This document shows, piece after piece, positions 34,214 to 63,692 of a DNA stretch of 64,000 bases. Numbering within the stretch: the first letter of the stretch is position 1; every line of letters begins with the position of its first letter. The DNA comes from an uncultured Opitutaceae bacterium. Its GTDB lineage: Bacteria > Verrucomicrobiota > Verrucomicrobiia > Opitutales > Opitutaceae. The stretch covers positions 22-64,021 of the forward strand of contig CAYQOH010000001.1 of NCBI GenBank assembly GCA_964419075.1. Reading direction: 5' to 3'. The translations under genes were made by a program, and so were the position numbers. The notes beneath the pieces were generated by a model. It had not been told where the DNA came from, ran no database searches, and saw nothing but the letters and a program-made list of their open reading frames with translations.

Positions 34214-34741
34214 AGGGGCGGATGCCCGAAAGGAATGCCGTATGATTCGAAGGCTGCTTGCGCCTACGGTGGCAATACGGTGGCCATGCATGGGCGTGAG
34301 CGCAACAGGCTGGGATCGACTTCCAAGTCAAATCGTCACCCACCCGTTGCAGCCCTGCCATGGGTCCGGCCCTTGCTGATCCCAAGCACTCCGCGAGCGG
34401 ATCCCCCGTTTCAAGCGGCCCCTTATGGCGGTCTCGGTGGATTTCCCTTGGGTCTGCGAGATTCGTCGTGCGCAAACCGAGCGGTCCTAGAGCTCTCTTC
34501 GGGTCATATCCAATTATACAACATATTGATCGACAGCGGCAAGGGCTGGGATCCCGACAAGGGACTCTTCAGCTGCCGACCGCATACCGATATATGGGGC
34601 TCGAATGAGCACGGGGGGAGATGCGGGATCTGCTGCTCGATGTTGCTCCATATTGCTCGTAGGTGCATATTCGAGATCACCCTTCCGACTCACATAAGTT
34701 GCGGATTAAAAATATCATCTGAGTGTTTCCAAGGATCTTGA

Positions 34742-34790
34742 TTTGGGTGTAGGGCTTGGATTTGTAGCAGCGGCCTTCAGGTTATGAGCC
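34742..34790 (-). repeat. decayed copy (A) of the 3' half of a tRNA-Met(CAU) gene
   Basis: About 49 nt aligns with copies B and C with roughly 8-9 mismatches or indels, counted by hand. This includes a perfect 17-nt match (CCTTCAGGTTATGAGCC) covering the anticodon loop CTCATAA in tRNA sense. The T-arm is degenerate and there is no 5' half. Confidence 0.55.
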
Positions 34791-35262
34791 GAGTCGTTCC
34801 ATATCCACATGTTGGCGTAATTATGAAGTGGCCGCCAGGAACCGACTGGGAGGAACAGGTACGGGGTCGAGAGGGGTAGCGGATGAGCCGTGTGAACCAT
34901 TACGGGGATTTGCGGTCCGGCGTTTGGTTTTGGGATCACTGCGCCTGATCGATTATTGGGTGGTCGTGTGCGCAGGAGCAGCCGGAGGGTTGCCAATCAT
35001 CCTATATTCAATGCCTATCATTCAGGCTTCGATTCCATTTCAACAACCGCCGGCTCATAGTTAAGGCGTCATTCGGGGCGCCTATGGCAGCGCTCCAGCA
35101 ACCCCGATTCAATTGATTCCCCGATCGCATAATCCATTGGACCACGCACTCCTTCGCGGATGATTCCGCCTAATCCAGCCACGACCCGGGAGAGGCGCGC
35201 AATCCGCAGATCCGGTCTGTTCATCGGATGATCTTACAGGGGCGGCCAAGCTTCCACGGTAG

Positions 35263-36123
35263 ATGAAATCGGAAAATAGGAAATCCAAGGAAATCAGGGT
35301 CGGAATCGCCCAGATCTTTGCGTTGGATGGCGACCGTTCAGGGAATTTCGCAAGGATTGAGAATGCCGTGGTCGAGGCCAAGGCGATGGGTGCTCAAATT
35401 GTGACGTTTCCCGAGTCTTGCATCCTCGGCTGGGAGAATCCCGCGGCGCATGTGCGCGCCCATGCCATTCCTGGGCCAGACTCCGATCGGTTATGCGCCT
35501 TGGCACGCCGACACCGAGTCTACCTCTGCGTCGGCCTCGATGAGAAGGACGGCGATCGGCTCTTTGGGGCGTGCATCTTGGTGGATGATCGCGGCGAGCT
35601 GCTCGCGAAGCACCGGAAGGTGAATGTGCTTCCGGAACTGATGACGCCGCCGTATTCGGTTGGGAGGGGGGCGAGCGTAGTCGAAACCCCTTTGGGAAGA
35701 ATCGGGATCCTGATCTGCGCCGACTCCTTTCTGGAGGAACTGCTTCAGGAGACGCGTGCGGCGCATCCCGATATCATGCTGATCCCATACGGCTGGGCGG
35801 CGCCTGAGGACAAGTGGCCCGAACACGGCAAGAATCTGTGTGACACGGTGATTTCGGTGGCCTCGAAGGTCGGATGCGTTGTGGTTGGGACCGACCTCGT
35901 CGGGTCGATCACGAACGGGCCGTGGTCCGGACAGGTTTACGGAGGGCAGAGCGTGGTGGCGGAGGAGGGCGGGAGGGTCCTGCATGTCTGCAGGGACAGG
36001 GACCGGGATGTCGTGGTGGTCGCGGTGAAGCCAGGCCGACGGTCAAGTACGGAGGAAGGACCACGAGATGCGCGGGACACTTTTCCTGCCGGAGAGACCA
36101 GCAACGCGGAGGTCTCGCGATGA
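35263..36123 (+). CDS. carbon-nitrogen hydrolase (nitrilase superfamily) protein
   Basis: Glu-Lys-Cys triad context: VTFPES, HRKVNV, ILICADS. The stop overlaps the next start as ATGA (36120-36123). Confidence 0.8.
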   Translation: MKSENRKSKEIRVGIAQIFALDGDRSGNFARIENAVVEAKAMGAQIVTFPESCILGWENPAAHVRAHAIPGPDSDRLCALARRHRVYLCVGLDEKDGDRLFGACILVDDRGELLAKHRKVNVLPELMTPPYSVGRGASVVETPLGRIGILICADSFLEELLQETRAAHPDIMLIPYGWAAPEDKWPEHGKNLCDTVISVASKVGCVVVGTDLVGSITNGPWSGQVYGGQSVVAEEGGRVLHVCRDRDRDVVVVAVKPGRRSSTEEGPRDARDTFPAGETSNAEVSR

Positions 36124-37553
36124 CCGATCAAGCAACCCGCTTTACAGATCCCGAGGACAGGCTGCCACGCCGCGAGAAGATAGCATACGGACTGGGCACC
36201 GCAAACGACACGTGGGGCCATTGGCTGTACCCGGGCGTGGCGTACGCGATCTTCAACATCTACCTAGGGCTTGGACCCAGCCTTGTGGGCCTTGCGCTCG
36301 CCCTTATCCGGCTTTTCGACGCCGTTTCTGACCCGGTGTTCGGCTGGCTTTCCGACAATGCCCGTAGCCGGTTCGGCAGGCGGCGGCCCTTTATCCTCGC
36401 AGGCTCCGTCATAGGGGGGATTGGCCTTCCCTTCCTGTTCCTCGTGCCCTCATCGATTCGCGGCTCGTCGCTGTTCTGGTGGATGCTGATCTCGAACCTG
36501 CTCTACCTGCCGCTCATCAGCTGTTTCAACATGGCCTATCAGAGTCTCGGCGCTGAGCTGACCCCGGATTACCACGAACGCACCAGCGTAAATGCATTCA
36601 AGGCGGCCATCTCGAAGATCTTCGAGGTCACGACATTCGCCGCCCTGCCGTTCACGAACCTCTGGTTCTTTAGGAGCGCGGTCGACGGGAAACAGAACAC
36701 CCTCCTCGGGATCCAGGTCTACGCGGCGATTCTCGGGATGCTGATGGCCGTGATCGGCGTGGTCATCTTCTTCAACGTGAAGGAACGTTACTATAAGAGC
36801 GTCGCGTCCCGCCATCAGGAGACGGTGTCCATCAGGGACTCGATCTACGCGGCGATGGGTTGCCGGCCCTTCAGGCTGATCCTCTTTATCAACCTTTCGT
36901 TCACGGTGGGGACCGGAATGCTCAGCACCCTCGGATACTACATGACGATCTACTACGTGAACCAAGGCAACACCGTCGCGGGCAACAATTGGAACGGGCT
37001 GATGGGGCTCTCCTACATGCTGCTGGGTTTCCTGGGTGCGCCGTCGCTCGCCTGGATCGGCCGGCGAACCGGGAAGCGGGCGGCCATGTTCTATGCTCTC
37101 GGCATCGCCCTTTTCGCCTTCGGCGGGAACTGGTTCTGGTACAGCCCAAGGTTCCCTTGGCTGCAGCTGGTCGGCTCGGGAGCGGGTGCCTTCGGAAGCG
37201 CGGGGATTTCCATGATTGTGGGCTCCATGGTGGCGGATGTGATGGACTATGACGAGTTGGGCACGGGAAAGAGGCGGGAGGGCGCATTCTCAGCCTGCAA
37301 TTCGTGGATCAACAAGGCCGGCGGCGCAGCCGGCTATTTCATTGCCGGCCAGATCCTCAACGTCATCGGGTTCCACGCCGGATCGGTGGGCCCGCAGTCG
37401 GCCCACACGTTGGCGCTGTTGCGGGCGGCGGTCATTGCCGGGCCGATCCTAGGGATTGGCCTGGGTGCATTTTTGCTTTTGCGGTTTCCGCTCACGCAGG
37501 AGAGCATGCACGCGATCCGTCTCGAACTTGAGGCGCGGCGGGGCAAAATCTAG
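36120..37553 (+). CDS. MFS transporter, glycoside-pentoside-hexuronide (GPH):cation symporter family
   Basis: LFDAVSDPVFGWLSDNARSRFGRRRPFIL is the GPH signature, with about 12 TM segments. Confidence 0.8.
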   Translation: MTDQATRFTDPEDRLPRREKIAYGLGTANDTWGHWLYPGVAYAIFNIYLGLGPSLVGLALALIRLFDAVSDPVFGWLSDNARSRFGRRRPFILAGSVIGGIGLPFLFLVPSSIRGSSLFWWMLISNLLYLPLISCFNMAYQSLGAELTPDYHERTSVNAFKAAISKIFEVTTFAALPFTNLWFFRSAVDGKQNTLLGIQVYAAILGMLMAVIGVVIFFNVKERYYKSVASRHQETVSIRDSIYAAMGCRPFRLILFINLSFTVGTGMLSTLGYYMTIYYVNQGNTVAGNNWNGLMGLSYMLLGFLGAPSLAWIGRRTGKRAAMFYALGIALFAFGGNWFWYSPRFPWLQLVGSGAGAFGSAGISMIVGSMVADVMDYDELGTGKRREGAFSACNSWINKAGGAAGYFIAGQILNVIGFHAGSVGPQSAHTLALLRAAVIAGPILGIGLGAFLLLRFPLTQESMHAIRLELEARRGKI

Positions 37554-37582
37554 GCGTCGGCCATCCAACAACACGCGCAACG

Positions 37583-39454
37583 ATGGGACTATGGAGTACT
37601 CTGGAGGAAGGGATCCTCCTTTTCCGAGACAGTTGCAACGTCTATGCCGTTCGGGGAACCAATGGGCGCTGGCTGATTGTCAATGCCGGAACGGGCGCAG
37701 CCGCGGCACACGTGTCCGAGCTCGGGGAGGTGCGCGGCGTGACGGTCCTATTGACCCACCACTTCAGGGACCATTCGGCGGGCGCCGCCCGATTCCTGTC
37801 GCAGGGGGCCGAAGTTGTGGCCCCTTATTGGGAGCGGGGCCACATGGGCGGCGCTCAGACCGAATCTCGCTCGGGCGACAACTGGCTGCTCTACAACCTC
37901 GCATGGGACAGGTTCGCCCCGATTGAACCCCTGCGCATCTCCCGCTGGGTGATGGACTATGAGACCACGGAGACAGCGGGTCTGAGCGTGCAGGTGGTCC
38001 CCGCGCCCGGGGTGACCATGGGCGCCGTCACCTACGTCGTTGATAGGCCGATGGGCCGCAGGGTTGCCTTCGTTGGCGAACTCATGTGCGCCGAAGGGAA
38101 GATCCCCCGGTTGTCGCCGCTTCAATACGAATACAATGACCTGATGGGAGGCCAGAACGTGCTGGCGTCGTTGAGCCGGGTGCTGGCATTGGGCCCCGCC
38201 GCTGCATACCCAAGCCTGGGTGATCCCATCGGCGACCTAGCGTCCGGGGCTGCGCGGCTTCGGGCCAATCTTGAGCGGTTCGATTCAATCCAGCCCGGCT
38301 ACGCGGCGCGGCTCAGAGGATCGGAGGACGGGATAGAGGAGGTGATTCCCAGGCTCTACCGAGCGAAATCATCGATTGCCGAGACCCATTTCATTCTAGG
38401 GCGCTCCGGCAGGGTGCTTGCGCTCGACTATGGCTATGCGACTGCCGGGGTCGCCCTGCCTCGCCGAGCGGCCTTCTCGACGCGAAGGACGCTTCTTCAC
38501 AGCGTGGAGGCGCTGGGACAGCTCACCGGACGGGCGCGCATCGACACCGTGGTCGCGTCCCATTACCACGACGACCACATAGGCGGCGTTGGGCTCCTCC
38601 AAAGGCTCTTCGGGACCGAGCTCTGGGCCGGGGAGAACTTTGCCGACCTGATCGAACGCCCCGCAGAGTTCAACCGTCCCTGTCTCTGGCCCGAGGCCAT
38701 CGGTGTGAACAAACGCCTCCCCTTGGGCGAGGCTGTAAGGTGGGAGGATGTCTCGATCACGCTGCACCCCATGGTCGGGCACACCGAGTTCTCGACGCTT
38801 CTGCTAATCGAGTTCGAGGGGCACCGCGTGGCCCACACCGGGGACCAGTATTTCTACCAAACGTCGTCCGGCCAGAACAGCGCGCCGCATGCCGGGGGCG
38901 CCGTCTTTACGAACCATGTTTACAGGAACGGCTTGGCGCTTGGCGGGTATGCCCACTGCCTGAGCCTGCTGCGGGCGTTTGAGCCCGAGCTGATCCTCAG
39001 CGGCCATGCGGTCCCGTACCGGCCGGATGCGGAAGCCTGGCGGCAGCTCGAGCGGGCTTCGGTTGAGTTCGACGCCATTCACAAGGCGCTCATGCCCATC
39101 GGCGAGGAAGAGGTGCATTTTGGCCCGGAGAGCCGGGCGGCGATGCTGCAACCCTACAGCCTCCACATGCCCGGCGCCGGGGGCACAGTGCGCATCCACG
39201 GATGGGTCCTGAACCCCTTCAACCGGAAGGTGCGGGCAAGGCTTCGCTTTGAGACACCCTACCCGGGATGGTCTGCGGCGCCCATCGAGCTGGCCCTGGG
39301 GGGCCGTCAGAAGTGCGCCTTCGAGGGCACGCTGGGCGTGCCACCCGGCACGCGTTGCCGGAGGTTACCCATAGCCCTCGACCTCGATGTGGACGGCAGG
39401 CCCTTTGGCCAGGTCGCGGAGGCATGGGTCACCGCCGGGTTCGATTCGTTCTAG
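37583..39454 (+). CDS. tandem metallo-beta-lactamase-fold protein
   Basis: The N-terminal domain has a degenerate motif, LLTHHFRDHSAG. The second domain has the canonical VVASHYHDDHIGG (HxHxDH). No signal peptide. Confidence 0.65.
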   Translation: MGLWSTLEEGILLFRDSCNVYAVRGTNGRWLIVNAGTGAAAAHVSELGEVRGVTVLLTHHFRDHSAGAARFLSQGAEVVAPYWERGHMGGAQTESRSGDNWLLYNLAWDRFAPIEPLRISRWVMDYETTETAGLSVQVVPAPGVTMGAVTYVVDRPMGRRVAFVGELMCAEGKIPRLSPLQYEYNDLMGGQNVLASLSRVLALGPAAAYPSLGDPIGDLASGAARLRANLERFDSIQPGYAARLRGSEDGIEEVIPRLYRAKSSIAETHFILGRSGRVLALDYGYATAGVALPRRAAFSTRRTLLHSVEALGQLTGRARIDTVVASHYHDDHIGGVGLLQRLFGTELWAGENFADLIERPAEFNRPCLWPEAIGVNKRLPLGEAVRWEDVSITLHPMVGHTEFSTLLLIEFEGHRVAHTGDQYFYQTSSGQNSAPHAGGAVFTNHVYRNGLALGGYAHCLSLLRAFEPELILSGHAVPYRPDAEAWRQLERASVEFDAIHKALMPIGEEEVHFGPESRAAMLQPYSLHMPGAGGTVRIHGWVLNPFNRKVRARLRFETPYPGWSAAPIELALGGRQKCAFEGTLGVPPGTRCRRLPIALDLDVDGRPFGQVAEAWVTAGFDSF

Positions 39455-39478
39455 GGGCGTAACCGCCGCACCCCTCCC

Positions 39479-41449
39479 GTGAGCATGGTCGAAACCTACG
39501 AGCAAGCCTTCACCGTGGAATTCCGCTCACCTGAGTCCGCGCGCAAGGCCGCGGTTCGCGTGGCGGGCCTTTACCACGATTTCAAAGCGGCCTTCTCCAC
39601 GAGAATGGACGACAACAACTCAAATGATATCCGTGTTGCCGAGGTGATGGCACGTTTCGGACAAAAGGGGACATTCTTCCTGAACGATCCGTGGGCCTGG
39701 TGGGAGGGAAACGCGGATCAGGGATCCGCGATGCCACATGAGCCCGGATCGGAGGTCCCTAGGGGCCTGCGTGCCGGTGGGCATTCCATCGGGGCTCACA
39801 CGCTGAGTCACGACTACCTGCCGGCGCTCTCAAAGAACGCTGCGTTCAAGGAGATCATGGGGTCCCGGATCGTCCTGGAGGTCCAATCGGGATCGCCCGT
39901 CTCCACCTTCACGTTTCCGTTCATGTATTGGCGCTCGCCGCTGAGGGAGGGTCTCGACCGCACGGACATCGAGGAGGTGCTGCGTCGCTCTGGGATCGTG
40001 CAACTTGCCGAGGACGGCTACAACGGGGGGCGCGACACGGGGCTGCAAGACGCCTGTTTCATCGTCGTCGACGGGAAGGCGGTCGGGGGCGGATCTGGCG
40101 AGTCCGTGATCGACCGCGAATGCCAGCGCGGCGGGCGACCCCTGTTCCTCGTGTCAATGCACGCCTGGCCGGAGCGCTGGGGAGGTCGTGGGTTTCCGAT
40201 TCTCGAGGAGGTCTATCGCAGGTGGGCGGGCAGGCAGGACTGGTGGTATTGCAACGCGAACGAATACGCCGCCTACCGGTACCAGGCATTGCACACGGTT
40301 CTGACCACCAGAGTCGATGGCCGGTCGGTCCGAGTGACGCTTGCGAGGCCGGACCCGCTTGATCTGGGAGACTGGGTTCCCTTGACGCTGGCGTTCGACG
40401 GCGTGGGTCCGGAAGAGGTGCTGTCCTTGTCAAGTGAAGGGGCGAAGATCGAGACTTCCGGGATCCCGGGCCTCTGTGCCGTCGACCTGAGCCATGACGG
40501 GGAATTCGGACCCGTTGCGGCCTACGGCCGATCCGACAATCCCGGAAACAGCGATCGATGGGATGATGTGGCCCCATTTTCGGGATTGAGGGCGCTCCTC
40601 CAGAGGCGACCCGACCACCTGGTGCTCCACCTGAAGAATGATGGAGAGGCCCCCCTGCGCCGCATCCGGGTGACCTTCAGGCTGCCCCTGCGCTGGCGCG
40701 AGGGCGTTGTCCGGCGGAACCTGGAGGCCTTGGGGCCCGGCTCGACGGCCACCCTGAAGATTGATCTCTCGGAGCGACCCGAAACCGATGGGTACGCGGA
40801 TGGCGTGGAGTACGACGTGGCTCAGGTGGATTTCGTCGGCGTGTCTCGAGCGCGGCTTTATGCGTTGTGTGAGGCGCATCGCGAGGATGCCCCTGCCCAT
40901 TTCTCCCGCGAGGGGTTTCTCGTGCTGGGCCCCGTTCCAGGAGACCTTGCCGAGCTGGATCCCCAGTTCTTCGGCGAGAACTTCCCCGTGAACCGCGCCG
41001 GGGAGCGGGCCTACACGGCGCCTTGGGGACGGAGCCTGTCCTGGCGGGCCGTTGCGGCTCCGCTCGCCGGTTTCCTGGATCCGGACATTGTCCCCACGTC
41101 GGCGCAGGCGAATACCCTCGACATCCACGGCTGGCATTCGTCCTCCGTCCATCCGCACACGAGGATGAATTACCTGCTTCGCGGCATGATTCACGCGCCT
41201 GTTGGGATGACGGTGCATGCTGTCTTTGATCGAACGCGGGTCGTTCGCGTCGAGCTCAACGGAGTGGGGGTTTCGGATGGATCCCTCGAACTCAGGGAGG
41301 GCGCCAACGAGCTACGAATCCTCTACCACTCGCTCCTCGCCTGCGATTCGCAGTTCAACGAAGGCAACTACGGCTGCTACTTCCGGCTTGTGGATGCGAA
41401 GGGCAGGCGGGCAAAGGGGGTCCGGTTCGAGAGACCCAAGCCGGCCTGA
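39479..41449 (+). CDS. polysaccharide deacetylase (CE4/NodB)-like domain with long C-terminal extension, cytoplasmic paralog
   Basis: NodB-like motifs FSTRMDD and GAHTLSH, with no signal peptide. It is clearly similar along its full length to the product of 43240-45351. Start is GTG 39479 or ATG 39485. Confidence 0.6.
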   Translation: MSMVETYEQAFTVEFRSPESARKAAVRVAGLYHDFKAAFSTRMDDNNSNDIRVAEVMARFGQKGTFFLNDPWAWWEGNADQGSAMPHEPGSEVPRGLRAGGHSIGAHTLSHDYLPALSKNAAFKEIMGSRIVLEVQSGSPVSTFTFPFMYWRSPLREGLDRTDIEEVLRRSGIVQLAEDGYNGGRDTGLQDACFIVVDGKAVGGGSGESVIDRECQRGGRPLFLVSMHAWPERWGGRGFPILEEVYRRWAGRQDWWYCNANEYAAYRYQALHTVLTTRVDGRSVRVTLARPDPLDLGDWVPLTLAFDGVGPEEVLSLSSEGAKIETSGIPGLCAVDLSHDGEFGPVAAYGRSDNPGNSDRWDDVAPFSGLRALLQRRPDHLVLHLKNDGEAPLRRIRVTFRLPLRWREGVVRRNLEALGPGSTATLKIDLSERPETDGYADGVEYDVAQVDFVGVSRARLYALCEAHREDAPAHFSREGFLVLGPVPGDLAELDPQFFGENFPVNRAGERAYTAPWGRSLSWRAVAAPLAGFLDPDIVPTSAQANTLDIHGWHSSSVHPHTRMNYLLRGMIHAPVGMTVHAVFDRTRVVRVELNGVGVSDGSLELREGANELRILYHSLLACDSQFNEGNYGCYFRLVDAKGRRAKGVRFERPKPA

Positions 41450-41504
41450 GCCGTAACGCGCCGCCGAGCGGAGTTCGGACCACGGTGCCCGCCGCGCGGG
41501 CGAA

Positions 41505-43232: not shown

Positions 43233-43239
43233 GGTAGGC

Positions 43240-47959: not shown

Positions 47960-48092
47960 TGTTTTTGTACGTCCGCTGGCTTGGAACACCCTGCCGGCAG
48001 GCTTCCATTCTGGGCCATTCCTCCTAAGAATAGAATCTACGGCCGGACGAAACGCCTGTAATATTGGATGGGGCCCTCGGGGAACCCGCGGC

Positions 48093-48998: not shown

Positions 48999-49260
48999 CC
49001 TAAATTGAAGCTCCCCGACGGGGGCGCAATCCGAATGGCTTTGATTGCGGAATTCCGACGCCCGAGCACGGGCCCGTGCCCAAACGGGAGCGATCAGCCA
49101 ATATTGCAGGGAAATCGTCTGGCTGTGGATTCTGTTCCTGTGCGTCTTGGCGCATAGTGGAGGCCTTGACCCCGCTTTCGCATTCCTCCTCCGTTGCGTG
49201 CCATGCGCACGCGGCGGCCCACCGCAAGAGGTTGCCCCTTGGGGGGCCATGCCCTAGGCA

Positions 49261-50181
49261 GTGAATCTCATGGAGGATAGGCATACCGGCTCTTTCAGGC
49301 TGGCTCTCGCGCAGATGCGGGTGGTCGGCGCTGACAGGGACGGCAACCTCGGGCGCGCAGCCCGGATGGTTGCGGCCGGCGCCAGGGCTGGAGCGCAGGT
49401 CGTGCTCCTGCCGGAAGCGCTCGACCTCGGATGGACGAGTCCCAAGGCGCGCGAGCTCGCCGGGCCTATTCCTTCGGGCGCCGCGTACAGATCCCTGAGG
49501 GACGCGGCCAAGAAGGCCAGGGTCTACGTCTGCGCAGGATTGACCGAGCGATCGGGAATGCGGGTCTTTAACTCGGCCGTCCTGATTTCTCCTCAGGGTC
49601 GGCTCCTCCTGCACCACCGGAAGCTCAATGAGCTTGAGATTGCGCACCCGGCCTATGACCAAGGCGACCGCTTGGCGGTGGCCCGGACACCCCTGGGGAC
49701 ATTCGGCCTCATGATCTGCGCAGACGGAAGCGTGGCGGGTCAGGTGGTGAGCCGCTCGTTGGCACTCATGGGAGCCGACGTGATCCTCTCCCCGTCTGCG
49801 TGGGCCGTGAAACCAGCCTACGACAACGCGCGCACGCCGTACGGCGCAATGTGGCGCCGGTGCTACGGAGCTGTCGCCCGCGATTTTCGGATATGGATCG
49901 CGGCATGCAGCAATGTCGGCGTCATCGATGGAGGACCGTGGGATGGTTACTCATGCATCGGGCGCTCCCTCGTGGTTGATCCGCAGGGTAGGCCGGCCCT
50001 TACCGGCCCCTTTGGGCCAAGGGCCGAAGCGCTCCTGTCGATCGAAATTGAGCCCGAGGCCAGGCCGGCACGGGGCACAGGATGGGAAAGGCTTTGGGCC
50101 GACCGCGAAGCAGCGGCGCGGAAAGGCCGCGTCCGCAGCCATCACGCGTCCAACCTCCGAACAACTCGGCGGACAGCTTGA
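49261..50181 (+). CDS. carbon-nitrogen hydrolase (nitrilase superfamily) protein
   Basis: Triad context VLLPEA, HRKLNE, LMICADG. Start is GTG 49261 or ATG 49270. It is divergent from araC. Confidence 0.8.
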   Translation: MNLMEDRHTGSFRLALAQMRVVGADRDGNLGRAARMVAAGARAGAQVVLLPEALDLGWTSPKARELAGPIPSGAAYRSLRDAAKKARVYVCAGLTERSGMRVFNSAVLISPQGRLLLHHRKLNELEIAHPAYDQGDRLAVARTPLGTFGLMICADGSVAGQVVSRSLALMGADVILSPSAWAVKPAYDNARTPYGAMWRRCYGAVARDFRIWIAACSNVGVIDGGPWDGYSCIGRSLVVDPQGRPALTGPFGPRAEALLSIEIEPEARPARGTGWERLWADREAAARKGRVRSHHASNLRTTRRTA

Positions 50182-50187
50182 TCACCG

Positions 50188-52203: not shown

Positions 52204-52334
52204 TGCTTCCCGGTACCGGAATTCGAACGTGGATGAGGCCGCAGGCCGGTTTGAGTGCCGTTTAGGGCGGGTCGACGAGACTTGAGGCCTTACCTCAAGG
52301 GGACACTCTTGAGGGCCAGGGCGGAGGGGAGAAC

Positions 52335-55184: not shown

Positions 55185-55739
55185 GAGTTGAAAGCAGAGC
55201 TGACGTGAGCACGCTCTATTGAGCCGGGGTTGTGTTAGTTTGGGCGGGTTCGTGCCAACTACGAGCTCATAGGCAAAGATTAGAGCGATGAGGGGTGACA
55301 CTCCAAAGTTCCGAAGGAGTGCCGCCACGAACGAGAAGGAAAGCGGCAAGGAGGGGGAGCCCAGACGGCTTCATACATGACGACAAGAATCGTGCGGTGA
55401 GGCTGCACGGAGCCCCTTGGCATTCGTTCATAACCGATTCGTGCGTCCGAGAAGATCGAATCTGAAATTGGCTAGCTCCCCAACGCCTTTGGGCACTGAT
55501 TCTTCAAAGCAAACTCTTGATTCGAAGAATTGGTGATTTCGACAGTTCTTCATGCTCCTTTTGTTGAGAGGGTCCCGATCTTCTGGGCGCCCAAGGTGCA
55601 CGGGTCCTGCCGGGACACCTATGGTAAGCTTATCGCCCTGCAGCCCGGCCATCGCGCCCTGCAGAAGGGGTCCGCGGTCTGACTGAACAACTCAGCGCCC
55701 CGGGGCGTGGTCTCCCTTCTTCACCGCCAGAGTGGTCCG

Positions 55740-58208
55740 TCATTCGGCCCGCAGCGCCTCGAGCGGGCTGATGCGGCCGGCGCGCAGGGCAGGGACCAGG
55801 CATGCTAGCAAGGCGACACCAGCGAGCGCCGTCCCGACCGCCGTGAATGTCACGACATCGAATGCGCTGGTCTCAAAGAGCATGCTCTGAAGGATGCGCG
55901 ACAACGCGAGGGATCCGGCCAGCCCGGCGCCCAGGCCAATGAACACGATACGCATGCTTTGATTCACGATCAGCCGCACAATATCACCCTGCGTGGCACC
56001 CAGGGCGGTTCGGATGCCAAGCTCGCGGGCCCTCTGGGTCACGTTCCACGCCACAACCCCATAGATGCCGACCGCCGCCAGCACGCTCGCCACGGAGGCG
56101 AAGAGTCCCAGAAGCACGGTGCTGAAACGGTTCTGGCGCAGGCTCTGTGCGATTGTGATCTCCATCGTCGACAGTTCCCGGATCGGCTGGTTGGGATCGG
56201 CTGCCATCACGATCGCGCGGGCGGCAGCGGCAGCGAGCAGTGGATCGCCGTTCGTCCGCATGAGGACAATCATGCCGTTGCGGATGATCGGCGAGTCCCA
56301 GCTCTGGTCGACGGGCAGGTAGGCCGCCGGTGTTGGATCCGACTGAAGGCCGGAATGGCGCGAGCTCTGGACGACGCCGACGACGCGCGTCCACTGGAAT
56401 TTGTCCAAGCCCGGCGGGAGCAGGCCCGGCTTGATCAGGTTGGCGGGCAGCCCGAGCATGACCTTCTGGCCGAGCGGGTCCCGGCTGCCGAGGAATTGCT
56501 TAACCGCGGCCTCGTTCAGGATGATGACCGGCTCCGACCCGGCGCGGTCGGCCTCAGTGAAAGCCCTCCCCCGCAAGAGCCGCAGGCCCTGGGCGGTGAA
56601 GTAGGCGCCGGTCACGCAGCTGAACTGGACGCTCTGGAGATCGCTGAGGTTCGAATAGGTGCGCTCGGGCGTAATGAGCGGAAGATTATTGCTCCCAAGC
56701 AGCGGCGCGTTGCTCGAAGCAGCGGCGGCCCTGACCCCCGGCAGGTGAGTCGAGCGTGCGACCACCTCCGTGAAGAACCGTGTCGCCTGTTCGCCCGTCG
56801 GATAGCGGGATTGTGGAAGCTGGATCGTCATCACGAGCAGATTCTCGGGATTGAAGCCCGGGTCAACGGACTGGAGCCTCGCGAAGCTGCGGATGAGGAG
56901 GCCAGCGCCGATAAGCAGGATGAGGGAGAGGGCCACCTCGCCCACGATGAGGCCCGAGCGTACCATGGAGCTTCGCGGGCCGACTGTGCCACGTCCGCCT
57001 TCCTGAAGCGCGCCCGTAAGGCGGTCCCGGGATAGCTCGAGGGCTGGAAGCAGGGCAAAGACAAGCATGGTGCCCGTGCACACGGCGACGGAAAAGAGCA
57101 TGACCGGCAGATTCACAGTGATGGCCGCTTCGGACGGGATGACATCCGCGGGAAGAAGGGCGAGCAGGGCCCTGAGGCCCCACGCTCCCACGAGGATTCC
57201 GGCGCCGGCGCCAAACGCGGCGAGCGGGATGCTCTCGAGAAGGACCTGCCGGACGAGGCGGCCCCGGCCGGCTCCCAGCGCCGACCGGATCGCAAATTCG
57301 CGTTGGCGCGTGGTAGCGCGCGCGAGCAGGAGGTTGGCGACGTTGGCGCAGGCTATGAGCAGCACAAAACCGACGGCCCCCAGAAGCATGAGCAGCGGGT
57401 TGCGGATGGGTCCCGAAACCGAGTCCGACAGCATGACGGCGCCCACGCCGATATTCTTGTTCGAGTCGGGGAACTGGTCGGCAATCCTCTTTGCGATCAC
57501 GCCCAGTTCGGCCCTGCCGTCCTTCAGAGTGGCGGTTGGCTTCAGCTTTCCCACGACCCAAGTGTTCATCCGGAGGACGCGGCTTCGCATGAGATCCGTG
57601 TCCGCCTCCAAGCCCACCGGCAGCCAGACCTCCGCGCCCCAGAACTTGAAGCGCGGCGGCATCACGCCGACCACCGTATAGGCCTTTCCGTCGAGCATGA
57701 GCTCCTTCCCCACCACATCGGGGTTTCCCCCGAGGCGATTCATCCACATGGAGGCGCCGATAACGCAGACGGGATCCGCGCCCGGGCGGTCCTCCGCCTC
57801 GGTGAACGCGCGTCCCAGCATGGGCTTCATTCCGAGCAAAGGCCACGCCGAGGCGGAGATGAGCGCCCCCCTCAGGCTCGCGGGCTCCTTTACCTTCGTG
57901 AGCGTCAGCTCTCGGTTCCAGGCGTAGGCCAGAAAGTCGAACTCGCGGGCTTCCTTGCGCATTTCAAGGTAGTCGGGGTAGGTGACCGGCATCTGGCCGC
58001 TCTGTCCCACGGGCGCGGAGCTGATGAAGGTGATGCGTTCGGGGTCCGTGTAGGGAAACGGGTGAAGCAGCACGGCGTGGATCACGCTGAAGATGGCCGT
58101 GTTGGCGCCGACGCCCAGGGCCAGCACCGCCGTGACCGTGACCGTGAATCCGGGGGACTTTCGTAGGAGGTGCAAGGAGTGAAGCAGGTCGGAGAGAATT
58201 GAGTTCAT
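55740..58208 (-). CDS. ADOP-family duplicated FtsX/MacB-like ABC transporter permease
   Basis: N-terminal LLRKSPGFTVTVTAVLALGVGANTAIFSV and two MacB_PCD/FtsX modules in one 822-aa chain. Confidence 0.85.
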   Translation of the reverse strand: MNSILSDLLHSLHLLRKSPGFTVTVTAVLALGVGANTAIFSVIHAVLLHPFPYTDPERITFISSAPVGQSGQMPVTYPDYLEMRKEAREFDFLAYAWNRELTLTKVKEPASLRGALISASAWPLLGMKPMLGRAFTEAEDRPGADPVCVIGASMWMNRLGGNPDVVGKELMLDGKAYTVVGVMPPRFKFWGAEVWLPVGLEADTDLMRSRVLRMNTWVVGKLKPTATLKDGRAELGVIAKRIADQFPDSNKNIGVGAVMLSDSVSGPIRNPLLMLLGAVGFVLLIACANVANLLLARATTRQREFAIRSALGAGRGRLVRQVLLESIPLAAFGAGAGILVGAWGLRALLALLPADVIPSEAAITVNLPVMLFSVAVCTGTMLVFALLPALELSRDRLTGALQEGGRGTVGPRSSMVRSGLIVGEVALSLILLIGAGLLIRSFARLQSVDPGFNPENLLVMTIQLPQSRYPTGEQATRFFTEVVARSTHLPGVRAAAASSNAPLLGSNNLPLITPERTYSNLSDLQSVQFSCVTGAYFTAQGLRLLRGRAFTEADRAGSEPVIILNEAAVKQFLGSRDPLGQKVMLGLPANLIKPGLLPPGLDKFQWTRVVGVVQSSRHSGLQSDPTPAAYLPVDQSWDSPIIRNGMIVLMRTNGDPLLAAAAARAIVMAADPNQPIRELSTMEITIAQSLRQNRFSTVLLGLFASVASVLAAVGIYGVVAWNVTQRARELGIRTALGATQGDIVRLIVNQSMRIVFIGLGAGLAGSLALSRILQSMLFETSAFDVVTFTAVGTALAGVALLACLVPALRAGRISPLEALRAE

Positions 58209-58747
58209 TCAGTTCGTGGAGGGCTCACATCGGTGGACGAAAACTAATGGGCCCTATTAGAGCAATGCCGATGCCAAGCCTTGAGCGTATTTTAAAGTAA
58301 TACGGAACAATAACTAACGAATCAGCTGTCGGTTCTTCACGGACATGAATTGACCGAATGTGGGAAGCGGACGTCCCGGATCTGGGATCACCGCCGGGGG
58401 TTCCTTGTGTCGCAGCGCGACGATGGAGATGCGGGCCTGCGGCGGCCGGGTGGGCATGCGGCGGAATCCCCTTTGGCGCAGTGAACTCTCAGGAAGAGGT
58501 CACAAGATCGGCAACCTGCGGGAAATCGCTTCGGTGGCCTGGCAATGCGACCCCGAGGCGGTGGCCGTCACTCTCGAGGATCTCTCTCCTCGGTCCCCGT
58601 CCTTGAGCGGCCCAGCCCGGCGATGCCGACCACGTGTCCCCTTAGGCAAAGCTTTTCCGACCGGTCCGGGGCACGCATGAATGACCCATGGGCATAGACG
58701 GGTAACGAGGCATTTACTTCATCCTCGAATGGCCGTTAGCTTGCGTG

Positions 58748-60325
58748 ATGGCGAACCTACTACCGGATCCGGGGCTCGCGCCTGTCACTTCGGCGAAGCA
58801 ACCGCATGCGGTCATCTCACTTTGCCGACTGTTGGCTGCGGCGGCCTTGCTCCTGCTGCTGCCGAGGGCCGCGCGGGCCGAGCCCATCCGCCCCTATCCG
58901 GCGAATCCCCACTACTTCATGCGTGACGGTAAGCCTATAGTATTGGCGACCTCCGATCACCACTACGGCGCGGTCATCGACGCGAACTTCGATTTTGCGC
59001 GCTTCCTCGATTACCTCGCGGCGAGCGGCATGAACCTTACCCGCATCTATCCGGGCGGCATGTTCGAGCCCCCTGACAAGTACGTCGCGGGCAATCCGCT
59101 GGGGCCGCGACCCGGCCACCAGATCCTGCCGTGGATGCGCTCGGGCGAGGCGGGGGCAAATGCCTCGCTTGCGGAGCCGGGCAAGGCGTCGCTCAAGTTC
59201 GATCTGGATCGGTGGAATCCCGACTATTTCGCGCGCCTGAGGGCCTTCGTCGATCTCGCTCGAAAGAAGGGCATCGTGGTCGAGGTCGCTTTCTTCAACG
59301 GCATGTATGCAGATTGCTGGCCGCTGATGGCGCTCTATCACGCCAACAACATCCAGGGTGTCGGGCGCTATGAAGCCGCGGAATGCGGGCTCTTCACGAC
59401 GTGCAACCCCCGCAACGAGGATGTTCTCCGCTACCAGCGCGCCTACGTCGCCAAGATAACCGCTGAACTGAACGAGTACGACAACGTGATCTTCGATATC
59501 TGCGACGAGCCCCTTCTGCAGGGGCTTCCCGGCGGCAAGGTTGTCTTCATGCCGGAAAGCGACGTGATTCCTTGGCTTCACGAGCTAAAGAACGCGTTCT
59601 TCGAGGCGCAGTCCAAGCTCCCCAAGGTGCACGTGCTCGGGCAGACGGTACAAAGCGCCTCCCCGGATCTCTCCGCTGAATCCTGGTGCGACTGGCTCCC
59701 CACCGAGTATGTTCGCGCCGCCGCGGAGGCCCTCAAGAAGAACTACGCCGCCTGCAAGCCGATCGTCGATGTGGAGTCGGACTACTTCGGAGGCGCCCTC
59801 GTAAGGCCATACACTACGGAGGACGTGCGGATTGAGGGTTGGTGGTTCCTGCTAAACGGGGGTGCCGGAAACACCAACCTCAACGGGGAGTACTTTGCCG
59901 GGCGGGAAACTGGAGGCGCTGACACACATGGGAAGGTCGTACCGCAGAGGAGAATCCTGAAGGACTTTGTCGAGGGCCTTGACCTCAGGTCGATTGTGCG
60001 GTTCGAGGGCCTGGGCGGAGTCCCCGCCGGTACCCGTTCGGGAGCCCTTGCAATCCCGGGCGTGGAATATGCGGTATACGTCGCGCATGCCAAGGACGAT
60101 GGAGAATGGGGCGCACACTTCGTCGGCGTCCCCGGCGCCTACCGCGACACGTTTACACTGAAGGCTGTGCCCGAGGGTGCCTATCGGCTGGATTGGATTG
60201 AGCCGGAGACAGGCCTGGTCAGGGCGTCCGGGCGAATCGACTGGCGCGGAGGCGATCTTACCGTGACAACCCCTGCGTACGCGCTTGACGTGGCGCTCCA
60301 CATGCGCGCTGCGGCCGTCCACTGA
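58748..60325 (+). CDS. putative glycoside hydrolase, GH5-like TIM barrel, secreted
   Basis: Signal peptide. NPHYFMRDGKPIVL at the N terminus and NVIFDICDEP (NEP-like acid/base block) suggest a clan GH-A barrel. The family assignment is uncertain. Confidence 0.5.
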   Translation: MANLLPDPGLAPVTSAKQPHAVISLCRLLAAAALLLLLPRAARAEPIRPYPANPHYFMRDGKPIVLATSDHHYGAVIDANFDFARFLDYLAASGMNLTRIYPGGMFEPPDKYVAGNPLGPRPGHQILPWMRSGEAGANASLAEPGKASLKFDLDRWNPDYFARLRAFVDLARKKGIVVEVAFFNGMYADCWPLMALYHANNIQGVGRYEAAECGLFTTCNPRNEDVLRYQRAYVAKITAELNEYDNVIFDICDEPLLQGLPGGKVVFMPESDVIPWLHELKNAFFEAQSKLPKVHVLGQTVQSASPDLSAESWCDWLPTEYVRAAAEALKKNYAACKPIVDVESDYFGGALVRPYTTEDVRIEGWWFLLNGGAGNTNLNGEYFAGRETGGADTHGKVVPQRRILKDFVEGLDLRSIVRFEGLGGVPAGTRSGALAIPGVEYAVYVAHAKDDGEWGAHFVGVPGAYRDTFTLKAVPEGAYRLDWIEPETGLVRASGRIDWRGGDLTVTTPAYALDVALHMRAAAVH

Positions 60326-60675
60326 CCTTCCGCGCGACCCTACCAGTCTGACAGTGTGGCGCAGGATTGTGTCGTTGGCCCGAAGAATTCGAAGTCCAAC
60401 CACGAACTCTCCAGACAAATTGACTTTGGGATTCGGCCGGGAGCCGCCAAGTGCTCGAAGCCCAAAGGAGGGTGGGCGACAAGGTGGCGATTTGGCGCGA
60501 TTTTCGATGCCCTGCCCCCGAGGCAACGGCTCAAGAAGGTATAGGGTCATTTCTCGATCGGGCAGGGGATTGCCACTATCATTGCGTGCAGCCTCGACCA
60601 AGATAGGGGATGCCGGAGAAGGGACCTTATTTCTGGACGCTTGACGGAAATCGCTCGAGGTCCGGTAAGGGGTAT

Positions 60676-60714
60676 CCAAAAGCAAAATCCCCCGTAACCT
60701 TGCGGCTACGAGGG
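60676..60714 (-). terminator. rho-independent terminator immediately 3' of tRNA fragment B
   Basis: On the minus strand the sequence reads CCCTCGTAGCC-GCAA-GGTTACGGGGG (9 of 11 positions pair), followed by ATTTTGCTTTTGG. Confidence 0.6.
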
Positions 60715-60717
60715 ATT

Positions 60718-60769
60718 AGATTGGGTGCAGTGGCTGGATTTGAACCAGCGACCTTCAGGTTATGAGCCT
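60718..60769 (-). repeat. copy B of tRNA-Met(CAU) 3' half (att-like direct repeat)
   Basis: In tRNA sense it reads AGGCTCATAACCTGAAGGTCGCTGGTTCAAATCCAGCCACTGCACCCAATCT. This gives the anticodon loop CTCATAA, a 5-nt variable loop, the T arm GCTGG-TTCAAAT-CCAGC, the acceptor 3' strand and CCA. The matching acceptor 5' strand TGCAGTG and the D arm are absent upstream. Confidence 0.75.
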
Positions 60770-60843
60770 GGCTGGCTTTCTCCGAATTCGACGGCGAACA
60801 CGGTCAGCTTGACGCCGTAGCAAAATGCTACAAATTGATTCGC

Positions 60844-61230
60844 ATGAGCACTATTCCACTTCGCATAGACACGGATTTGGTCAACGTCGCCCGAGAATCG
60901 GCCGCTGTGATGGATCGGACGCCGACGGCCCAAATTGAGTTCTGGGCTAAACTTGGGCGAGTCATGGAGCAAGTCCTCACCCACGATGCCCTGGTGACGG
61001 TAAAAGAGGCTTCTCGGGTCAAACGCCTGGACGAGCTATTGGCAATGGTTGCGACGCCCAAGGGTAAGCAGAGGGCGCTGGCTGTGATTCGCCGTCACAA
61101 GGGACCGACTTACAGTGCGGACCCGACGAAACCAGGAGTGATCATTGAAACGCGGCCTGACGGCTCCAAGCGCCGCGGCAAATTCTCAAACCGCCATTTC
61201 ATGCCCTTGGTGGCAGTGAACTCGGAATGA
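60844..61230 (+). CDS. ParD-like type II antitoxin
   Basis: The N terminus MSTIPLRIDTDLVNVARESAAVMDRTPTAQIEFWAKLGRV matches the ParD-like (PF11903-type) pattern as I recall it. The stop overlaps the next ATG (ATGA at 61227-61230). Confidence 0.55.
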   Translation: MSTIPLRIDTDLVNVARESAAVMDRTPTAQIEFWAKLGRVMEQVLTHDALVTVKEASRVKRLDELLAMVATPKGKQRALAVIRRHKGPTYSADPTKPGVIIETRPDGSKRRGKFSNRHFMPLVAVNSE

Positions 61231-61787
61231 GCGCGCCTCACCTTGTTGTCTTGGCGGGACCCAATGGCGCAGGAAAGTCGACATTCTTCCGCGCTTTCCT
61301 TCGTGGGTCGGGCCTCAAATTCCTTAACGCCGACGACATTGCGGCCAAGCTCAGTCTCTCTGTTTCCGATGCCGCCCGCGCTGCTGACGCACTCCGGACT
61401 AAATTACTCGAGACCCGCGAGTCGTTTATAACAATGACCGTTTTTTCTGACCCGGTTGGGGCCAAGCTCCAGTTCATGAGGGAGGCCCTGGCGAAAGGTT
61501 TTTCTGTCACATTGATCTATATTGGATTGGCCGGACCGGACTTGTCTGAGGCGCGGGTCATACAGAGGGTAGGAGAAGGGGGACATGACGTTCCCTCGGA
61601 CCGGCTGTCTCGCCGCTACAAGCAGTCGCTCTTGAATCTTGTGGCTGCAATGGAGTTCGTTCCCACAGTGCGGGTTTATGATAATTCTTCGGATGAGGAT
61701 CCGTTCCGACTTGTGCTATCGGTGGACAGTGGCCGCAGGAGCGGATCGGACCGTCTTCCCGAATGGCTGGCCAATGCCCTGTCTTGA
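61227..61787 (+). CDS. zeta-toxin-like P-loop kinase / COG4185 ATPase
   Basis: Walker A LAGPNGAGKST, a NADDIA block, about 186 aa, and coupled to an upstream small antitoxin-like gene. Confidence 0.65.
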   Translation: MSAPHLVVLAGPNGAGKSTFFRAFLRGSGLKFLNADDIAAKLSLSVSDAARAADALRTKLLETRESFITMTVFSDPVGAKLQFMREALAKGFSVTLIYIGLAGPDLSEARVIQRVGEGGHDVPSDRLSRRYKQSLLNLVAAMEFVPTVRVYDNSSDEDPFRLVLSVDSGRRSGSDRLPEWLANALS

Positions 61788-61878
61788 GAATTCGCCGCCG
61801 AATATGTGCCAAACGCGTGCCCAAAATGCCTCATTTCATTGCACTCGGCTGCACTCTGCCGTCATTTCAGAAGACACG

Positions 61879-61914
61879 AAGGCCCGCTCGGAAGTGATTA
61901 TCCTAGCGGGCCTT
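61879..61914. terminator. perfect 10-bp hairpin between the zeta-like gene and repeat C
   Basis: AAGGCCCGCT-(16 nt loop)-AGCGGGCCTT. It lies directly 3' of tRNA fragment C in tRNA sense and about 90 nt 3' of the plus-strand zeta-like gene. Confidence 0.45.
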
Positions 61915-61924
61915 AGGGTATCTA

Positions 61925-61976
61925 AGATTGGGTGCAGGGGCTGGATTTGAACCAGCGACCTTCAGGTTATGAGCCT
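61925..61976 (-). repeat. copy C of tRNA-Met(CAU) 3' half (att-like direct repeat)
   Basis: It is identical to copy B at 51 of 52 positions (G versus T at 61938/60731, in the acceptor stem). The upstream sequence GTTTATAGGGAGCTATT cannot form a D arm or an acceptor 5' strand. Confidence 0.75.
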
Positions 61977-62017
61977 AATAGCTCCCTATAAACATCTTAA
62001 GTTCTCTCTGGTGTGAC

Positions 62018-62075
62018 GGACAGGGACCGACTGGGGCGGACAGGGACGGGGACAAAATGGACAGCGTTTGGACAG
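62018..62075. repeat. cluster of five GGACA(G/A) direct repeats next to repeat C
   Basis: GGACAGGGAC at 62018 and 62038, GGACAA at 62050, GGACAG at 62059 and 62070. Confidence 0.5.
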
Positions 62076-62222
62076 TATAACTTGGTCCGGATTTGCTTCA
62101 ACGGTCCTTCGAAATTGAGATGCTTTGCGCACCTCTCTCTATTGGGATAATGACAGAGGCCGTTAGCGTCGCTTTCGTCGTTCGTCTCTCCGGCTATCAA
62201 GCGCGATTGACGCCGTATCCAG

Positions 62223-63659: not shown

Positions 63660-63692
63660 CGCTTCGATCGGCCACCATCCCCATTCTGGACT

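Follow-up and report, generated by a model that had tools for sequence, protein, structure and literature searches.

Three tRNA-Met 3' copies delimit a tandem array of integrase-less segments, including a glycan-degradation island, in an Opitutaceae population

Results

The window, as we call the whole 64,000-nt stretch of DNA analysed here, carries three segments, X, Y and Z, which form a tandem array bounded by copies of the 3' part of a tRNA-Met(CAU) gene. A repeat finder returned these copies as one direct repeat family with three members, all on the minus strand in the tRNA sense: fragment C (34740-34791), fragment A (60718-60769) and fragment B (61925-61976), in agreement with a preliminary description that had reported three same-strand copies of this 3' part. 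Taking A as the reference, B matches it at 51 of 52 positions (98%), which is the single difference noted before, and the decayed fragment C matches it at 79% without gaps, close to the roughly 80% estimated earlier; the 17-nt perfect core of C, GGCTCATAACCTGAAGG, was also confirmed. Two exact occurrences of the 37-mer GGCTCATAACCTGAAGGTCGCTGGTTCAAATCCAGCC are present in the window, where 100 shuffles give an expectation of 0. Compared with the intact gene described below, B has no mismatch over positions 30-77, A has one, located in the acceptor 3' strand, and C, which covers positions ~31-77, is ~13-21% diverged (87% identity over 47 nt, positions 31-77, when aligned with the full tRNA). Identity to the intact tRNA begins at position 30 in B, 29 in A and 31 in C, that is, in the 5' strand of the anticodon stem, and ends with the encoded CCA. 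Upstream of these starts no relatedness to a D arm was found in A, B or C, so that the unrelated 5' sequence described before holds for all three copies. As anticipated, the window contains no full tRNA: ARAGORN found zero tRNAs and Rfam nothing at the gathering score, while at relaxed thresholds RF00005 gave 27.6 bits for B and 23.2 bits for A, both below the gathering score of 29 bits. The similarity between C and B reaches 90 nt further into the element side, forming the direct repeat D1 (34743-34881 and 61928-62066, 139 nt at 73%). At fragment C, where the array meets the core chromosome on its outer side, GC drops from 0.68 to ~0.62.

A complete tRNA-Met gene lies ~0.6 kb past position 64000 on the same minus strand, to the right as had been proposed, and was read on the contigs L006 and L003; its position, 64611-64687, is taken from contigs ~99.9% identical to the window (L006, 99.945% over 1815 nt) and is hence called window-equivalent. 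Both ARAGORN and Rfam detect this gene (64.4 bits against RF00005), and its 3' part equals fragment B. It shares 89.5% identity with the three tandem tRNA-Met genes of E. coli between mltA and amiC, known as metZWV. Initiator tRNAs were judged by similarity to initiator genes, A11:U24, three anticodon-stem G:C pairs and no Watson-Crick pair at 1:72; the intact tRNA has A11:U24 and two of the three G:C pairs (A29:U41 is the exception), its 1:72 reads U:A and its discriminator is C. These features suggest an initiator-type tRNA-Met(CAU), and the gene belongs to Opitutaceae (Verrucomicrobiota). Beyond the tRNA, the 6.4 kb covered by L003 hold a conserved pseudopilin-like cluster. A tyrosine integrase had been thought probable next to the intact gene; this expectation failed, as none was found between fragment B and the tRNA nor in those 6.4 kb.

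Island X (34792-60717, ~25.9 kb) carries glycan-degradation cargo according to Pfam and to gene calls on population contigs: two CN_hydrolases, an MFS_2 sugar transporter, a metallo-beta-lactamase-fold protein, two polysaccharide deacetylases, a GH44, an SGNH esterase, an AraC regulator, a beta-helix/GH141-like protein, a GH94, a MacB/FtsX permease and an apiosidase-like hydrolase. GC content is a weak island signal here, the 0.627 of X being close to the 0.613 of the L003 core beyond the tRNA. The distal, attR-side arm of X (34792-34881, minus strand) is a decayed homologue of the distal arm of Z, to which it is related through D1, and decayed forms of the CAGTCGGTCCCTGTCCG repeats are visible in it. 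At the other side, the tRNA-proximal end of X (60350-60717, minus strand) is a decayed copy of that of Z, with 79% nucleotide identity to L003 3701-4131 over 434 nt. This end holds the remains of the C-terminus of the zeta-like gene and of an arm motif, now decayed; the 56-aa ORF of Z survives in it as a frameshifted pseudogene (60386-60538, 54% identity by tblastn). It finishes in a terminator-like hairpin (60686-60717), and compared with the hairpin that follows the intact tRNA this one shows a paired G:C to A:T change.

Module Y (60770-61924, plus strand, 1155 bp) contains a ParD-like antitoxin gene (60835-61230, plus strand; Pfam ParD_like, 34.4 bits, cut-off 23) and a gene for a zeta/AAA_33 toxin-like kinase (61227-61787, plus strand; Pfam Zeta_toxin, 36.4 bits, cut-off 22.3) that overlap by 4 nt, a pair that fits a predicted type II toxin-antitoxin system. 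Homologues of Y in L022 and L116, with 77-79% amino-acid identity, adjoin the same tRNA and bear an extra ~125-nt distal arm that is absent from the Y of the window, in which no arm-type repeats were found. Both X, with its proximal pseudogene, and Y, without its distal arm, show decay in situ.

Module Z extends over 2.65 kb from fragment B to the intact tRNA, and its only genes are those for DUF6880 and a zeta-like kinase and a 56-aa ORF. Its distal, attR-side arm (61977-62090, minus strand) contains the paired motif TGTCCA-N5-TGTCCA (62058-62074, minus-strand reading) and two CGGACAGGGAC repeats (62017-62027 and 62037-62047, plus strand); the distance from the start of the motif to the anticodon loop is exactly 101 nt, and it is the same in L065, L096, L105 and L121. 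The first gene (62250-63659, plus strand) encodes a DUF6880 protein of 469 aa (PF21810, 200.7 bits) that is present in exact form on 7 metagenome contigs and gave no match with PADLOC or NCBIfam. It is followed by a zeta-like/AAA_33 kinase gene (63693-64000, plus strand; tblastn 100%), cut by the window end after its N-terminal 102 codons. On the near-identical contigs (gene calls and Pfam on L002-L006), the 56-aa ORF, the proximal arm, the terminator hairpin and the intact tRNA-Met come 3' of this kinase, and the proximal arm reads CGTCCG-N5-TGTCCA and then CGTCCA, at +82.

Contigs from several samples, with unique flanks on both sides and 99.5-100% identity to the window, span the junctions X-A-Y-B-Z (L002), Y-A-X (L147), core-C-X (L134 and L135) and Y-B-Z (L004). 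The make-up of the array varies in close relatives, L003 reading Z-B'-other DNA and L001 Y-A'. The core-C-X junction is identical in every population contig that covers it, and no unoccupied site adjoining the left-hand core genes of the window was found among relatives. The Y-A-X junction is also invariant in the population contigs. In more than 119 genome stretches, every occurrence of the 52-mer belonged either to the tRNA gene or to a fragment located at a site of this kind, which disposes of the earlier concern that it might be a dispersed repeat.

Integrases were absent from the array, as already noted for the window: Pfam found no tyrosine recombinase among the main ORFs of 34.7-64 kb, tblastn of the window with three integrases from relatives gave a best E-value of 0.086, and the gene calls of L002-L006 contain no integrase up to the tRNA. 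No recognisable integrase remnant was seen in X, Y or Z, and the Pfam matches in the array include no recombinase, relaxase or type IV secretion genes. The same tRNA was then followed in Opitutales genomes with a 45-mer, which gave 88 intact genes and 29 fragments. A tyrosine integrase of ~550 aa (PF00589) lies 123-155 nt from 12 of these 29 fragments, and at that distance also in a provirus bounded by the tRNA and a fragment. A second family, of ~420 aa, begins 174-182 nt after the intact tRNA in L034, L084 and L122 and is accompanied by YGTCCR-N5-YGTCCR, placed +79 to +84 after the tRNA and, for fragments, at -101 before them. This paired motif is present in Z at both positions, +82 and -101, and X has decayed versions. 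The fragments of other genomes begin at tRNA positions 27-33. In related genomes the same tRNA serves as a hotspot for two tyrosine-integrase families. Small integrase-less modules bounded by the tRNA or its fragments recur in other Opitutaceae, with four toxin-antitoxin families (ParD/zeta, Gp49-HigB/HTH_3, RHH/PemK and AbiEi/AbiEii). One of the relatives (L070) has a truncated AbiEii, and in another (L103) the distal arm that Y has lost is retained, and by eye the sequence behind it resembles the N terminus of a truncated integrase.

Discussion

The most probable origin of this locus, and one in which we have considerable confidence, is serial site-specific integration at a site in the anticodon loop followed by loss of the integrases, giving a tandem array similar to those of cis-mobilisable elements (CIMEs). 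Three elements would have arrived one by one through tyrosine-integrase recombination at the 3' side of tRNA-Met, each attP carrying a tRNA copy that spans the anticodon stem through the CCA, with the crossover in or near the anticodon loop. Every insertion would then rebuild the gene with the 3' part of the element and displace the earlier 3' part outwards. In the direction of the tRNA the order would be intact tRNA, Z, B, Y, A, X, C and core chromosome, and of the resulting direct repeats C would be the oldest, then A, with B the youngest, assuming that each event used the intact tRNA and not a resident fragment. The starting registers of the copies and the intact gene support the earlier proposal that these are displaced 3' parts of one tRNA gene after repeated integration, and the mismatch counts (B 0, A 1, C ~13-21%) sustain the further idea of a tandem array of segments of different ages from 34.8 kb rightwards. 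The integrase genes would later have been lost, presumably by deletion, although the lack of any recognisable integrase remnant in X, Y and Z counts against this; what is left, remnants flanked by att sites, fits the CIME definition. Among these, X is a large island with cargo for glycan use that has become fixed in the population, and Y and Z are small modules around zeta-type toxin-antitoxin-like genes, probably retained because cells that lose an addiction module are selected against. Also weighing against serial integration are the weak GC contrast, the invariant X-C junction of the population and the failure to find a relative with an unoccupied site. What we infer from the present arrangement is the sequence of events, the loss of integrases through deletion and the role of addiction; the repeats and their register, the intact gene, the missing integrase, the arm-site architecture, the decay and the parallels in relatives are observed.

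A different history, which we find rather unlikely, is that Y and Z never had an integrase and are non-autonomous, att-flanked cassettes, for the most part toxin-antitoxin modules, that are inserted and excised in trans by an integrase of a neighbouring element or of another place in the genome. The tRNA-Met site would in that case resemble a cassette array in its working. This would fit the paired arm motif on both sides of Z, at the distances found in integrase-bearing elements, the recurrence of integrase-less modules with four toxin-antitoxin families, and the position of Z and Y beside different fragments in close relatives (B' in L003, A' in L001). Fragment B is also still identical to the tRNA, but 48 nt are a poor guide to the age of an event. 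Against cassettes moved in trans, decay is directly visible in the window, where Y lacks the arm of its homologues and X has a pseudogenised version of the end of Z, and it may be traced in the truncated AbiEii of L070 and the possible truncated integrase of L103. Vertical descent and a later insertion account for the HigBA module shared by L066 and L105, and neither a circular or attP junction nor a cognate integrase from the source genome was seen. In its broadest form, to which we give an equally small chance, the initiator-type tRNA-Met of Opitutaceae would be a cassette dock, where integrase-less modules with complete arm-site sets are shuffled in trans by co-resident tyrosine integrases; if true, the locus would parallel an integron array, with a tRNA gene as its base. 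The modules that such a dock would hold are mostly toxin-antitoxin pairs and also include the uncharacterised DUF6880/zeta-like/56-aa trio.

It is very improbable that the copies, instead of being integration scars, belong to a dispersed repeat derived from a tRNA or arose by segmental duplication or by homologous recombination between tRNA-Met paralogues. The stretches after fragment A and after the intact tRNA are indeed homologous over ~430 nt, and by itself this might point to a duplicated tRNA neighbourhood; however, every copy starts at the anticodon stem/loop and none includes the 5' half, the fragments of other genomes share this boundary with integrases directly adjoining, the window has just three copies in one orientation at one locus, and arm-type repeats stand at fixed distances in the element-side flanks. 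Least credible of all is an artefact of assembly or binning by misjoining of repeat-bounded contigs: short-read assemblies do break here (L001 is a repeat-bounded contig of 1330 bp, and L005 both begins and ends within the repeat), but independent contigs span every junction and the array is therefore not such an artefact.

Serial integration with later integrase loss places the array close to two known systems. Islands and prophages formed at tRNA and tmRNA genes by tyrosine integrases, the Islander principle and the class of attP centred on the anticodon are established (PMC4383910). As in Islander islands, an intact gene rebuilt by the element and a displaced 3' fragment in the same orientation at the far end are found here (the intact gene through near-identical contigs), the fragment begins at the anticodon stem/loop, the anticodon loop being, with the T loop, a known crossover point, and several elements are in tandem at one gene (PMC4383910). 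Relatives show the full version of this type, in which an integrase adjoins either the fragment or the tRNA, whereas no member of the present array has an integrase inside it. Islander filters demand an integrase and recognise tandem arrays only if each member has its own (PMC4383910), so this array would not be reported. Among 3919 Islander islands, only 4 arrays of at least 3 were found (PMC4383910).

In CIMEs, likewise an established concept, the genes for integration and transfer are lost while attL and attR are kept (PMC5704250). X, Y and Z each lie between two tRNA-derived core copies, with arm motifs on both sides of Z and the distal arm of Y lost, and by Pfam they have no integration or transfer genes. 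Like the CIMEs related to ICESt1/ICESt3 of Streptococcus thermophilus, and as described in reviews of IMEs, they are tandem remnants at the 3' end of a target gene, built up through later insertions at a resident att site. They differ in the phylum (Verrucomicrobiota), in the initiator-type tRNA-Met target and in the unrelated integrase families. Of the three remnants, two have shrunk to toxin-antitoxin-like modules, and no conjugation genes or ICE partner were seen, so that ICE/IME descent and any cis-mobilisation are at most possible.

Two further systems share single traits with the locus. Integron arrays, including the toxin-antitoxin cassettes of chromosomal superintegrons, are also rows of small, promoter-poor or self-contained modules, with several toxin-antitoxin pairs among them, between recombination sites at one chromosomal locus; here intI and attI are absent, the repeats are direct copies of the tRNA 3' part and not attC, and one member is a 26-kb multi-operon island, and an integron cassette array was rejected for lack of an integrase and for the nature of the repeats. 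In the split tRNA genes of Nanoarchaeota and some Crenarchaeota, tRNA halves likewise stand without an adjoining partner half. The present fragments overlap the anticodon loop instead of starting after position 37, the host is bacterial, and of the fragments one is decayed while a second carries a mismatch in the acceptor; a split gene was rejected, given the intact gene at the locus and the mutations in C and A.

The locus is a textbook integration hotspot, unusual only in its integrase-less segments, and the tRNA-Met array leaves current understanding unchanged. It exposes a blind spot of island finders that require an integrase, and two integrase families with their arm-site layouts are now defined for this tRNA-Met target. 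The recurrent remnants that consist of toxin-antitoxin genes alone agree with the view that addiction modules outlast all other parts of an island. For the Verrucomicrobiota, a phylum with few described mobile elements, the array offers a clean and fully delimited case of island accretion at a tRNA gene, in which the 26-kb glycan-degradation set of a soil Opitutaceae population very probably arrived as an integrative element.

Results

Three displaced 3' pieces of a tRNA-Met(CAU) gene lie as direct copies on the minus strand of the window, in agreement with the preliminary description, which is accurate. Fragment A (60718-60769) serves as the reference copy, fragment B (61925-61976) equals it at 51 of 52 positions and fragment C (34740-34791) is 79% identical to it in an ungapped alignment. 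A 37-nt core occurs exactly twice in the window and 0 times in 100 shuffles. The likeness between C and B reaches about 90 nt past the fragments into the adjoining DNA (139 nt, 73%). As anticipated, neither ARAGORN nor Rfam at its gathering score reported a full tRNA in the window; at a relaxed threshold the Rfam tRNA model gave 27.6 bits for B and 23.2 bits for A, both below the 29-bit cut-off.

The intact cognate gene had been predicted to the right of position 64000, and it is found there in the near-identical contigs L006 (99.945% identity to the window over 1815 nt) and L003 (98.6%). The DUF6880 protein encoded at 62250-63659 has an exact copy on seven metagenome contigs, and the window closes with 308 nt that are the first 102 codons of a zeta-like kinase. 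Beyond the window end, L006 and L003 continue through this kinase and a 56-aa ORF into a complete tRNA-Met(CAU) on the fragments' strand (ARAGORN call, Rfam 64.4 bits), which these contigs project to 64611-64687 in window coordinates. Fragment B matches positions 30-77 of the intact tRNA with no difference, A has one mismatch, and C agrees with it at 87% across positions 31-77. The intact tRNA is 89.5% identical to three tandem E. coli tRNA-Met genes between mltA and amiC, the initiator genes metZWV, and has the initiator-type A11:U24, but one of the three G:C pairs in the anticodon stem is missing and positions 1 and 72 pair as U:A, so that it appears initiator-type, short of a proven initiator. 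A 45-mer that takes in the acceptor strand and CCA was found in GTDB genomes in at least 119 stretches, almost exclusively from Opitutaceae/Opitutales (Verrucomicrobiota), the closest of these 119 loci being only 75-77% identical to the window, across ParD/zeta genes. The left part of the window codes for PSCyt1/PSCyt2/PSD1 and DUF1501 proteins, which are common in this superphylum; a PSCyt/PSD1 protein looked up with two start codons gave no match, and its neighbouring genes did give matches.

In the direction of the tRNA, the order is intact tRNA, segment Z, B, segment Y, A, segment X, C and core. Z (about 2.65 kb; window 62250-64000, continued in L003 1722-3904) is a compact operon of DUF6880 (469 aa), a zeta-like/AAA_33 kinase (190 aa) and the overlapping 56-aa ORF. 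PADLOC and NCBIfam gave no meaningful match for these three products, and scans of viral contigs found neither DUF6880 relatives nor the arm-plus-fragment pattern; the operon could be a toxin-antitoxin or defence module of three genes. Y (1155 bp) encodes a ParD-like antitoxin and a zeta/AAA_33 toxin in genes overlapping by 4 nt. X (25.9 kb) carries glycan-active and transport genes, including GH44, GH94, a GH141-like beta-helix protein, an apiosidase-like protein, two polysaccharide deacetylases, an SGNH esterase, an MFS_2 transporter, a MacB/FtsX permease, an AraC regulator and two CN_hydrolases. The core left of C has a GC content of 0.679, against 0.627 for X, 0.563 for Y and 0.57 for Z; these values support X as an island rather than prove it, because the core past the tRNA in L003 has 0.613.

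X also contains paralogues: GH44 lies between two oppositely oriented polysaccharide deacetylase genes, which form a 184-nt inverted repeat (39743-39926/44769-44952, 70% complementary), and the CN_hydrolase genes (35263-36123 and 49261-50181) form a second pair. A 92-nt direct repeat (75%) links the core (16637-16728) with 58585-58676, just upstream of the apiosidase-like gene of X, and could represent a coding or regulatory segment common to both places.

The array shows signs of decay. A pseudogenised copy of the end of the DUF6880 operon lies at 60350-60540, within the 370 nt past fragment A, which are a 79% copy of the DNA past the intact tRNA and hold the final zeta-like codons, the 56-aa ORF in frameshifted form (60386-60538) and a terminator-like hairpin; X therefore formerly bore a Z-like module at its tRNA-proximal end. 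Each tRNA copy has such a hairpin of 14 bp after it, borne by the element (window 60686-60717 and L003 4047-4078), and a paired change from G:C to A:T separates the two versions and leaves the stem intact.

The preliminary description also expected a tyrosine integrase beside the intact tRNA, and this is the one element of its interpretation that did not hold. No integrase was found in X, Y or Z, nor within 6.4 kb past the tRNA in L003, a stretch occupied by a pseudopilin-like cluster whose synteny extends to seven other Opitutaceae genomes, and tblastn with three integrases (E up to 50) returned no credible remnants in the window. In genome loci, the 45-mer has 121 exact matches, which are divided into 88 intact tRNAs, 29 fragments lacking the 5' half and 4 copies cut by contig ends. 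The fragment starts cluster at tRNA positions 27-33, which places the attachment site in the anticodon-centred class (PMC4383910). Two tyrosine-integrase families make use of it. Class 1 (about 550 aa, PF00589) was seen in twelve genome loci and in one provirus bounded by intact tRNA and fragment; its gene stands 123-155 nt from the fragment, with transcription leading away from it. Class 2 (about 420 aa) scores 25.4 bits with Phage_integrase, slightly below the Pfam cut-off of 27.1, and has weak XerC/XerD-like NCBIfam matches; in L034, L084 and L122 it begins 174-182 nt past the intact tRNA and is read in the direction of the tRNA.

The class 2 integrase is accompanied by a paired motif, YGTCCR-N5-YGTCCR, a candidate arm-type binding site, which stands at +79 to +84 past the tRNA core in L034, L084, L122, L026 and L103, and exactly 101 nt ahead of the fragment anticodon loop in L065, L096, L105 and L121. 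Z carries it at +82 past the intact tRNA and at -101 ahead of B (62058-62074), and X has decayed forms at both ends; from these motifs we infer that Z and X are derivatives of class-2-type elements with both arms kept and the integrase absent. In L103 the class-2 arm is kept and the next sequence resembles, by eye, the N terminus of an integrase cut short. Another pair, CCCCCAA-N4-TCCCCCAAAG, is found at one fragment in L046 and in the ParD/zeta modules of L022 and L116; these homologues of Y (77-79% amino-acid identity) have it in an additional arm of about 125 nt on the distal side, and the absence of this arm from the window's Y is a further sign of decay.

Relatives also have tandem arrays with integrases. 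A Nibricoccus genome has two fragments 6.8 kb apart with a class-1 integrase at each, and in SMAG_U5999 the distances of two fragments to the tRNA are about 150 kb and 152 kb. In other Opitutaceae genomes, modules of 0.7-3.1 kb that lack an integrase and are bounded by tRNA and fragment or by two fragments recur with different toxin-antitoxin families: ParD/zeta (1.2 kb, L022), Gp49-HigB with HTH_3 (1.0 kb, L066 and L105), RHH-like with PemK/MazF (0.7 kb, L110 and L132) and AbiEi with truncated AbiEii (3.1 kb, L070). The HigBA module abuts the intact tRNA in L066 and a larger element intervenes in L105, a difference that reads as the insertion polymorphism that a hotspot predicts.

Two further observations concern these loci. 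Copies of 18-26 nt of the extreme tRNA 3' end (positions 52/60-77), lying 0.1-1.9 kb from gene or fragment in L019, L040, L055, L086, L114, L126 and L130, may have been left by integration at a second attachment sublocation, in the T loop or at the 3' end. Also, the Opitutaceae-type fragment appears on contigs that binning assigned to Bryobacterales, a betaproteobacterium and Acidobacteria (L051, L069, L116), for which mis-binned island DNA is the likeliest source.

All the window junctions were recovered in contigs of several samples (L002, L004, L134, L135, L147), and misassembly is therefore ruled out. The C-X junction shows no variation in population contigs, and one metagenome scan for the Y-A junction gave the same arrangement throughout. 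Two variants were found: in L003, Z is followed by a decayed fragment B' (85% to the tRNA) and then unrelated DNA, and in L001, Y leads into a fragment A', whose differences from A are confined to the part 3' of the anticodon loop and whose flank is another one. Between L003 1398-1530 and window 61925-62060, which comprise the fragment and about 85 nt of adjacent arm, identity falls to roughly 70-85%, while across the remainder of Z the two lineages agree at 98.6-100%, which suggests a recombination breakpoint within that arm. The unoccupied site sought in relatives was not encountered: seven genomes share the gene order 5' of the tRNA, with the pseudopilin-like cluster, but in none of them do the core genes from the left of the window lie 3' of it.

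Discussion

The best-supported explanation for this array is serial tyrosine-integrase integration at an anticodon-loop site followed by loss of the integrases. Integrases would insert elements one by one, each insertion restoring the tRNA and shifting the earlier 3' part outward, and later deletion would remove the integrases and most backbone genes. A refinement of serial integration, in which co-resident integrases moved the Z-like and Y-like modules in trans, seems to us improbable. Dispersal of a tRNA-derived repeat and duplication are both contradicted by our tests. Split tRNA genes are rejected by the existence of an intact gene and the mutations in the fragments, and a strict integron array by the lack of intI and attC.

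Serial integration with later integrase loss agrees with the definition of cis-mobilizable elements (CIMEs) and with tandem accretion (PMC5704250), as well as with the principle of the island finder Islander (PMC4383910). Since the filters of Islander demand an integrase and recognise tandem arrays only with one per member (PMC4383910), the present array, in which no member has one, would go unreported. In this sense, the array constitutes a further case of a known type of island accretion, in an under-studied phylum.
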